Positions 8,675 to 9,548 of a DNA stretch of 55,569 nucleotides are shown here, piece by piece (the first letter of the stretch is position 1; each line of letters starts with the position of its first letter). The notes under the pieces were generated by a model. That model saw nothing but the letters and a program-made list of their open reading frames with translations. It searched no databases and was not told where the DNA came from. The stretch comes from a virus (lineage: Duplodnaviria > Caudoviricetes), in the IMG/VR virus record IMGVR_UViG_3300012964_000005, positions 1 to 55,569 of that record; one strand, 5' to 3'. The position numbers and the translations under genes were made by a program.

Positions 8675-9548
8675 TCCCGGAAGCGCCCACCTCGCGCCGG
8701 CCAGCGAGCAGACGGCCATCATCGACCTGATCTGCGAATTGCAGGTACGGCGCAAGCACTGGATTCGGGCGGCCAACAAGCTGACCAATTCCATTGGCGC
8801 CCTGACCCGCCGGCACATGGGCTGGACGCTGGCGTTGCCGGAGAAGGAGCGAAAGAAGATCGAGCCCCGTGCCGCCGCGCTGATCAAGGCCGTAAAACAG
8901 ACGGGCGCGTTTTCCGATGGCGAGCGCGGCCTGCCGGAATCGCTGCTGATCGACCTCGGGGCCACCTTCGCCGCGCTGGCCCCGGTGGAGGCGGAGCGCG
9001 AGCGGATCGAGCGGCAGATGCGCAAGCTGGTCAAACAGTTTGCCGTCTGGCAAAGCTTCGCCGAAGGCGTGGCCGGGTTCGGTGAGCTCGGCTTGGCCGT
9101 CATCATCGGCGAGGCGGGCGATCTTGCCGGCTATCCGAACCCGGACAAGCTCAAGAAACGGCTCGGGCTGGCACCGTTCCGGGGCGCGGCGGCCAGCACA
9201 TGGCGCAAGAAAGGCGGCCTGACGGCAGACGATTGGACCGAGGTAGGCTACAGCCCACGCCGCCGGGCCGAAATCTACGCAGTCATCGGTGTTCCGCTGT
9301 TCCGGGCGCAGTCCGTAGCAGCAAAGCGGGATGGGGGCGGCCAAGCCAGCACTGGTGCCCGGAAGAACCACGCCGCCCCCTACCGTACCATTTACGACGC
9401 GCGCCGCGCTCATACGGCCGTCACGCATCCGGACTGGATCAAGGGCCATTCCCACAACGACGCTCTCCGCATCATGACCCAGCAATTGGTCATCGACCTG
9501 TGGTGCGCGTGGAACGGGAAGGAGCGGAAGCCAACCGATAATCCTTGA
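8667..9548 (+). CDS. TasA-like Nop/IS110-related RNA-binding protein lacking a nuclease domain
   Basis: Coiled coil plus GVAGFGELGLAVIIGEAGDLAGYPNPDKLKKRLGLAP (IS110 C-terminal/Nop-type motif), PYRTIYDARR and H..ALR...DLW..W; no DEDD RuvC or HNH domain. Confidence 0.75.
   Translation: MRDPGSAHLAPASEQTAIIDLICELQVRRKHWIRAANKLTNSIGALTRRHMGWTLALPEKERKKIEPRAAALIKAVKQTGAFSDGERGLPESLLIDLGATFAALAPVEAERERIERQMRKLVKQFAVWQSFAEGVAGFGELGLAVIIGEAGDLAGYPNPDKLKKRLGLAPFRGAAASTWRKKGGLTADDWTEVGYSPRRRAEIYAVIGVPLFRAQSVAAKRDGGGQASTGARKNHAAPYRTIYDARRAHTAVTHPDWIKGHSHNDALRIMTQQLVIDLWCAWNGKERKPTDNP
9333..9380 (+). ncRNA. fourth TIGR-like unit, inside the tas gene
   Basis: GGGGGCGG-CCA-AGCCAGCAC-TGGTGCCCG-GAAGAACCA-CG-CCGCCCCC. 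Confidence 0.65.

Follow-up and report, generated by a model that had tools for sequence, protein, structure and literature searches.

A probable stem-loop guide unit within the reading frame of tasA in a complete tailed-phage genome

TIGR-Tas systems are guided by short RNAs (tigRNAs) with two spacers of 8–12 nucleotides (nt), a box C that reads CCA and a box D that reads UG, in which edge and loop boxes usually covary and, in stem-loop arrays, variable palindromes replace the edge repeats, as set out in the cited parts of Faure et al. (2025, PMC12045711). The cited sections of a recent preprint (Xu et al., bioRxiv 10.64898/2026.09.09.750476, 2026-09-11) add that tigRNA loops are mostly of 9 nt, that a conserved CUU at the stem base is the processing boundary (which is not stated as universal) and that stem-loop tigRNAs also occur in frame inside genes, typically in disordered regions. 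In BlTasA of Bifidobacterium longum, such coding-sequence tigRNAs were recovered by small-RNA-seq and map to the wedge loop. The same sections describe TasA as an RNA-guided transcriptional repressor and suggest that embedding may couple tigRNA maturation with Tas translation, while the Discussion does not decide between the tas transcript and internal promoters as the source of intragenic tigRNAs. Here, we analyse a unit of this sort (U4, positions 9333–9380, + strand) in IMG/VR virus record IMGVR_UViG_3300012964_000005 (Duplodnaviria; Caudoviricetes), whose 55,569 nt are the whole stretch analysed and are called the window below. U4 is probably an authentic TIGR guide unit of the stem-loop type that lies in frame within tasA of this tailed phage, whose genome is complete. 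It is a further instance of a published arrangement and not a new kind, because the preprint already reports in-frame intragenic tigRNAs; a preliminary description of this DNA, which proposed a guide unit inserted in frame in tas and treated the arrangement as new, has to be corrected on the latter point.

How this locus compares can be judged from the portions of these accounts cited here. As in BlTasA, the unit lies inside an unbroken tas frame and corresponds to a disordered part of the Nop domain flanked by secondary-structure elements, the TasA has no nuclease and there are further units upstream, whereas it differs in that U4 lies at a loop aligned with insertion 1 (see below) rather than at the wedge loop and is known here from sequence alone; the preprint may already catalogue this clade or site. 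Set against the units of Xu et al. more generally, U4 has no CUU nearby, its boxes C' and D are variant and the units ahead of tas share the frame of another gene, a conserved one. The stem-loop arrays found with TasA in a Peromyscus gut contig (Faure et al., 2025, PMC12045711) and the PlTasA structures (Guan et al., bioRxiv 10.64898/2026.08.11.744272) offer a second point of likeness, with their variable palindromic stems in place of edge repeats, two spacers, CCA/UG boxes, 9-nt loop and dimeric nuclease-less Nop-domain protein. However, arrays of the Peromyscus/PlTasA type are, as described there, intergenic sub-arrays of many units, whereas this phage has only four units, each within an open reading frame.

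Direct terminal repeats and 64% GC characterise the window, a complete virus record, in which the gene in question is the following:

8667–9548, + strand: tasA, an open reading frame of 293 amino acids (aa) for a nuclease-less TIGR-associated protein (coiled coil plus Nop/IS110-C-like domain)

Its product is a nuclease-less Tas, that is, TasA, because (i) a profile of 32 homologs matches the TaTasR chain of PDB 9MTY (E 1.7e-6), a TIGR-TasR structure (Faure et al., 2025, PMC12045711), (ii) a Foldseek search of its AlphaFold2 model against the PDB returned TasH or TasR chains as all of the best ten matches listed (probability 1.00, template modelling score 0.46–0.52), with the IS110-family recombinase IS621 ranked behind the Tas structures, and (iii) no RuvC, HNH or other nuclease domain was found in a Pfam scan, which gave a single weak match to Transposase_20 (IS110 C-terminal, E 6.4e-4). 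The model (mean predicted local distance difference test, pLDDT, 85.1; predicted template modelling score 0.81) begins directly with a long coiled coil, its long helices spanning residues 14–50, 59–79 and 91–122, and continues with a helical C-terminal domain. An IS110-family transposase was considered and rejected, since the N-terminal DEDD (RuvC-like) domain PF01548 was not matched at E up to 0.1. What TasA has in common with the IS110 bridge-RNA recombinases (IS621, PDB 8WT6/8WT9) is a Nop-like RNA-binding C-terminal domain, whereas it lacks a DEDD/RuvC match, has a coiled coil at its N-terminus and would work with a short dual-spacer hairpin instead of a bridge RNA.

U4 consists of a perfect 8-base-pair (bp) stem around CCA-N9-UGGUGCCCG-N9-CG and reads, in order, GGGGGCGG-CCA-AGCCAGCAC-TGGTGCCCG-GAAGAACCA-CG-CCGCCCCC. 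Its parts are given here beside those of L003, a related locus with a unit at the homologous codons:

9333–9380, + strand: U4, a stem-loop tigRNA-type unit in frame, encoding G223–P238 (motif, folding, covariance model)
9333–9340, + strand: 5' stem arm GGGGGCGG, perfectly paired with 9373–9380; innermost pair G:C, which is A:U in L003
9341–9343, + strand: box C, CCA, canonical according to Faure 2025
9344–9352, + strand: spacer A, AGCCAGCAC, 1 of 9 bases the same as in L003
9353–9361, + strand: 9-nt loop TGGTGCCCG, made of box D' (TG), the linker GTGC and box C' (CCG, a variant)
9362–9370, + strand: spacer B, GAAGAACCA, 3 of 9 bases the same as in L003
9371–9372, + strand: box D, CG, a variant of UG found at box D in 4 of 133 family units
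9373–9380, + strand: 3' stem arm CCGCCCCC, complementary to 9333–9340

All eight Watson-Crick pairs of the stem are retained in the minimum-free-energy and the centroid folds, and RNA folding adds a ninth pair, C-G. Of its boxes, C (CCA) and D' (UG) are canonical and the remaining two, C' (CCG) and D (CG), are minority variants. The spacers, with 9 nt each, equal in length those of all 138 units taken from related loci. The layout stem-CCA-N9-9 nt-N9-YG-stem is shared with three units upstream (U1–U3), which confirms what had been said of the spacing, and the translation is also as first read, DGGGQASTGARKNHAA being residues 222–237.

That this likeness is more than chance was measured in two ways. 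Three copies of the core motif in the window are closed by a Watson-Crick stem of at least 6 bp, and no such copy arose in 200 dinucleotide-preserving shuffles; since the pattern was partly derived from the window's own units, an independent test was made with a covariance model (R1) that was built, with an 8-bp stem, from 138 distinct units in the arrays of other loci and contains no window sequence. R1 was run over all 55,569 nt, on both strands and with filters off, and its three best matches in the genome are U3 (39.3 bits), U1 (34.6 bits) and U4 (34.5 bits, E 5.1e-5), the last ending exactly at 9333 and 9380 on the + strand, while the best match that is not a unit reaches 19.7 bits (E 0.07). 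In ten related loci, R1 finds 91 matches of 23.5–49.2 bits, and a scan of 38 related loci showed arrays of units with the same geometry next to tas in 27. No Rfam family was matched, the search giving two chance-level microRNA matches far below their gathering scores. Together with the Tas profile and Foldseek matches, the model and these arrays bear out the claim of a guide unit in frame within tas.

A second line of evidence comes from the Tas homologs themselves. The best 120 were taken and 109 could be parsed at the site, where the linker is of 4 residues in 87, of 21 residues (linker plus unit) in 8, of an unrelated 15 residues in 8 and of other lengths in 6. Maximum likelihood, applied to 32 homologs, placed all eight carriers of the 21-residue form on one side of a branch with support 99/98, the window's protein being the deepest and longest branch of the group and its insertion-bearing relatives 49–54% identical to it. 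As judged from this alignment, the U4 segment is a lineage-specific insertion and not a conserved protein segment. An alignment of homologs had been proposed as a check on whether the segment is a variable insertion, with conservation at the protein level in homologs lacking the RNA motif as the contrary outcome; the former is what is seen, and the latter is not since the insertion is confined to one lineage.

Scans with the clade alignment turned up homologous loci in metagenomes (63), in a genome (1) and in viral sequence (1), among which L003 alone carries an insertion of the U4 type. A degenerate pattern of the loop and the downstream codons found no match in viral contigs, and tblastn against a phage collection found two matches only, both partial and distant. 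The L003 unit sits at homologous codons, in the same frame as U4, with a 12-bp stem and canonical boxes. Identity between the two is 45/63 and 45/60 in the flanks and 7/8 in each of the stem arms, and falls to 1/9 in spacer A and 3/9 in spacer B, and the single differences in the two arms amount to one compensatory change of the innermost pair, from G:C to A:U. From these paired sequences, the pattern is that of spacer replacement within a maintained scaffold and not that of a drifting protein loop.

In the AlphaFold2 model, residues 222–237 form a coil with pLDDT near or below 50–55, between helices 197–221 and 238–253, and a profile alignment places the site at Q247–T249 of TaTasR. This stretch is named insertion 1 in the Methods of Xu et al. 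(bioRxiv 10.64898/2026.09.09.750476), a loop that, according to the cited sections, sits inside the tigRNA spacer loop. On the protein side, the 48 nt of U4 are thus predicted to enlarge the loop between two Nop-domain helices by 16 disordered residues. The unrelated 15-residue insertion at the insertion-1 site is found in P0013, P0015, P0028, P0039, P0058, P0059, P0095 and P0109 and is conserved as protein (AEKSG..YG or DKETGE types). Sequence comparison thus marks the insertion-1 site as a hotspot at which different kinds of expansion occur.

The alternative that survives best is that 9333–9380 is a relic, a unit that was captured in frame in an ancestor and is now only tolerated as a disordered linker, with no functional guide, which we hold to be unlikely. 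It draws on part of a set of observations that weigh against a genuine, working guide unit. Compared with the family consensus TGA(A/T)(A/G)CCCA, the loop TGGTGCCCG is degenerate, as had been noticed at the outset, and U4 departs from the family at three positions of its loop and boxes, each time with a minority variant: G at loop position 3 (11 of 133 family units), CCG at box C' (12/133) and CG at box D (4/133). Its R1 score is within the family range but toward the lower end, the window's copy is the most degenerate of the eight insertion-bearing proteins and the only one with G-A-R, and CG or CCG boxes occur in 3 of the 4 window units, as against five canonical units out of five in L003. 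The deep and long branch of the window's protein also fits a relic. Other points bear on the guide reading as a whole. The edge boxes and loop boxes of U4 do not covary; CUU/CTT was not found within 30 nt on either side of U1–U4; the folding energy of U4 is unexceptional for its GC content (z −1.17); covariation at the DNA level is read from two sequences, the window and L003, the other six relatives being known as proteins; and no target site with at most 3 mismatches was found in the phage genome for U1–U4 in either spacer arrangement. Against a relic stands the stem, still perfect over 8–9 bp, which neutral drift should have decayed, given flanks only ~72–75% identical to those of L003. Moreover, by R1, U4 scores as U1 does and well above U2, each of its variants is also found within otherwise regular arrays of other loci, and the window's Tas is unchanged at each of the 30 invariant columns of the 32-homolog alignment. 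A maintained guide unit is, therefore, the reading we prefer, and the three weakened positions (loop A to G, box C' CCG, box D CG) are the reason why the window's U4 may be a weaker guide than those of its relatives.

The eight insertion-bearing proteins can also be read codon by codon, which bears on a second alternative, namely that selection acts at the protein level only, a Gly-rich, DAQ-containing loop being a functional peptide whose likeness to the array is incidental. A peptide role is conceivable for a segment at the loop that, in the cited sections, Xu et al. place inside the tigRNA spacer loop, and a different insertion, conserved as protein, occupies the same site in eight other homologs. 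However, conservation coincides exactly with the residues whose codons give the stem, CCA and TGATRCCCA. GG[GD][HQ] is kept in all eight, as are the flanking [AV]A-P-Y, and D[AT]Q is kept in six, with GAR in the window's copy and DTP in P0003; in this register, GGC/GAC-CAx spells the stem end plus CCA, and x-GAT-RCC-CAG spells UGAURCCCA. By contrast, variation is free in the six codons that lie wholly within the spacers and at the third base of two boundary codons, and every one of the eight has different residues at its spacer codons. The two bases of the innermost stem pair stand at second codon positions, one in the codon just before His/Gln and the other in the codon that follows spacer B, and they covary as base pairing demands: three proteins have Gly/Ala (G:C), four have Asp/Val (A:U) and one has Gly/Val (G.U), with no mismatches. 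The nucleotide motif also recurs in another codon register (U2) and, in other loci, before or after the tas match; selection on the peptide alone is very improbable.

A chance GC-rich inverted repeat in GC-rich coding sequence, unrelated to the array, has next to no likelihood: the genome is 64% GC, the window holds 26 perfect 8-bp inverted repeats with loops of 28–36 nt and the folding z-score of U4 is modest, but the full motif is absent from all the shuffles, the independent covariance model finds U4 at E 5.1e-5 and a unit of the same geometry stands at the homologous codons of L003.

How a guide unit at this position might work can be outlined from the published systems. U4 would probably be transcribed within an operon mRNA shared by the upstream gene and tasA, a TasA dimer would bind its hairpin through the box C/D motifs and host RNases would trim it to a guide. 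With one spacer for each strand, the guide would then lead TasA to an 18-bp DNA site, at which TasA, because it has no nuclease, would act as a roadblock or repressor. Excision of U4 would at the same time cut the tasA message and exert negative feedback on TasA synthesis, so that autoregulation through U4, which the preliminary description had put forward and which the authors of the preprint raise as well, is plausible. The Microprocessor is autoregulated in that Drosha cleaves hairpins in the DGCR8 mRNA. The parallel, which concerns the proposed feedback only and comes from an unrelated eukaryotic system, is that of an RNA-processing complex recognising a substrate-like hairpin in the mRNA of its own subunit.

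A stronger version of this scheme would have the tasA message itself be a pre-tigRNA, whose destruction upon U4 excision by TasA and host RNases ties guide supply to effector synthesis, and would have spacer swaps also rewrite the 6–8 hypervariable residues of insertion 1 that face the guide. The translated spacers would lie in the insertion-1 loop, between the two spacers in the ribonucleoprotein, and therefore each spacer replacement would re-write part of the guide-facing protein surface. We put this forward tentatively and regard it as possible but doubtful; if true, it would be a direct sequence coupling between guide RNA and effector.

As for targets, we infer from the published 8-nt 3' overhangs that the expected order is spacer A followed by the reverse complement of spacer B, which is not a stated rule. 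In this arrangement, exact matches in viral contigs number 0 for U4 and 1 for U3. In the opposite arrangement (reverse complement of U4 spacer B, then spacer A), there are eight exact 18-mer matches in viral contigs, which amount to about two independent ones since seven (L070 and L072–L077; IMG/VR, GC 0.60–0.64) lie in one homologous region and the eighth (L071) is on an unrelated contig. By our reading of the published cleavage geometry this arrangement is the wrong one, and these matches were not counted as U4 targets.

U4 does not change the overall picture of TIGR-Tas biology, the arrangement being already in the preprint. Its interest would be as (i) a natural example of one 48-nt stretch under dual constraint, as a guide-RNA hairpin with its boxes and as an in-frame protein loop, (ii) a clade-wide signature of this constraint, with stem and box codons frozen, spacer codons free and Gly/Asp covarying with Ala/Val according to base pairing, (iii) an extension of the intragenic tigRNA examples to a second Nop-domain site, the loop aligned with insertion 1, besides the wedge loop of BlTasA, and (iv) a compact, complete 55.6-kb phage genome with four units in total, which makes it tractable for testing whether guide maturation and Tas translation are coupled.

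The other three units, which were located by motif search and a unit scanner, lie in the gene that precedes tasA:

8015–8674, + strand: conserved upstream gene, 219 aa, whose central linker bears U1–U3 in frame
8213–8260 (core at 8221), + strand: U1, 6-bp stem, box D' CG; covariance model 34.6 bits, E 4.8e-5
8286–8323 (core at 8289), + strand: U2, weak interrupted stem, box D CG; covariance model 18.9 bits, E 0.1
8348–8401 (core at 8359), + strand: U3, 11-bp stem whose outermost pair is G-U, four canonical boxes; covariance model 39.3 bits, E 4.9e-6

The codon register of U2 differs from that of U1, U3 and U4. Repeat finders did not detect the array, because stems and spacers vary and only the short box motifs are constant. 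By tblastn, the product of 8015–8674 is 35% identical over 241 aa to L003:573–1277, a gene upstream of tas that spans L003's own array, and its C-terminal domain recurs upstream of tas in L015, L016, L018 and L019; no Pfam or PHROG family was matched. The gene possibly encodes a Tas-associated partner that accommodates the array in its linker. Published TIGR-Tas accounts speak, in the parts cited here, of a ParB-like partner and of arrays inside tas, and arrays inside another gene are not described in those parts.

The ATG of tasA overlaps the stop codon of this upstream gene, and downstream of tasA there are small genes followed by the large terminase gene (10055–11326). Shortly after the tasA stop lies a hairpin, read by eye:

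9595–9632, + strand: terminator-like GC-rich 8-bp hairpin, CGCCCGGC...GCCGGGCG then TTTGCGTTT

It is absent from the listing of the terminator scan, whose T-run rule it does not satisfy, and could be the end of the array-tasA transcript. A sigma-70 promoter scan of 7500–10100 gave no match, but such a scan is weak in GC-rich DNA and its outcome does not speak against an internal promoter. Among sequencing runs, none of RNA is listed for this DNA, and the contigs of four DNA runs show across it the probable source contig and otherwise short unlike fragments, which speaks neither for nor against expression. At both ends of the record (window positions 1–189 and 55392–55569) there are 63-nt tandem units, which are consistent with direct terminal repeats.

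The suggestion that units can be dispersed into coding sequence also holds beyond U4, with U1–U3 in the frame of the conserved upstream gene and, in other Tas clades, units at the coiled-coil tip and at the 3' end of tas. In one other clade, units lie in frame between the two coiled-coil helices, that is, at the tip:

L015:3204–3253, in-frame unit at the coiled-coil tip
L016:3085–3142, in-frame unit at the coiled-coil tip
L017:565–622, in-frame unit at the coiled-coil tip
L018:1819–1868, in-frame unit at the coiled-coil tip
L019:2284–2341, in-frame unit at the coiled-coil tip

L016, L017 and L019 have a second unit-like stretch just ahead of the tip unit. In-frame units in a 3' extension of the tas open frame are found in L003, L021, L011 and L030; that of L003 (2215–2268) is a further canonical unit at the 3' end of the frame and reads DDGGQTLCDAQMSGAPII in the called protein P0007.

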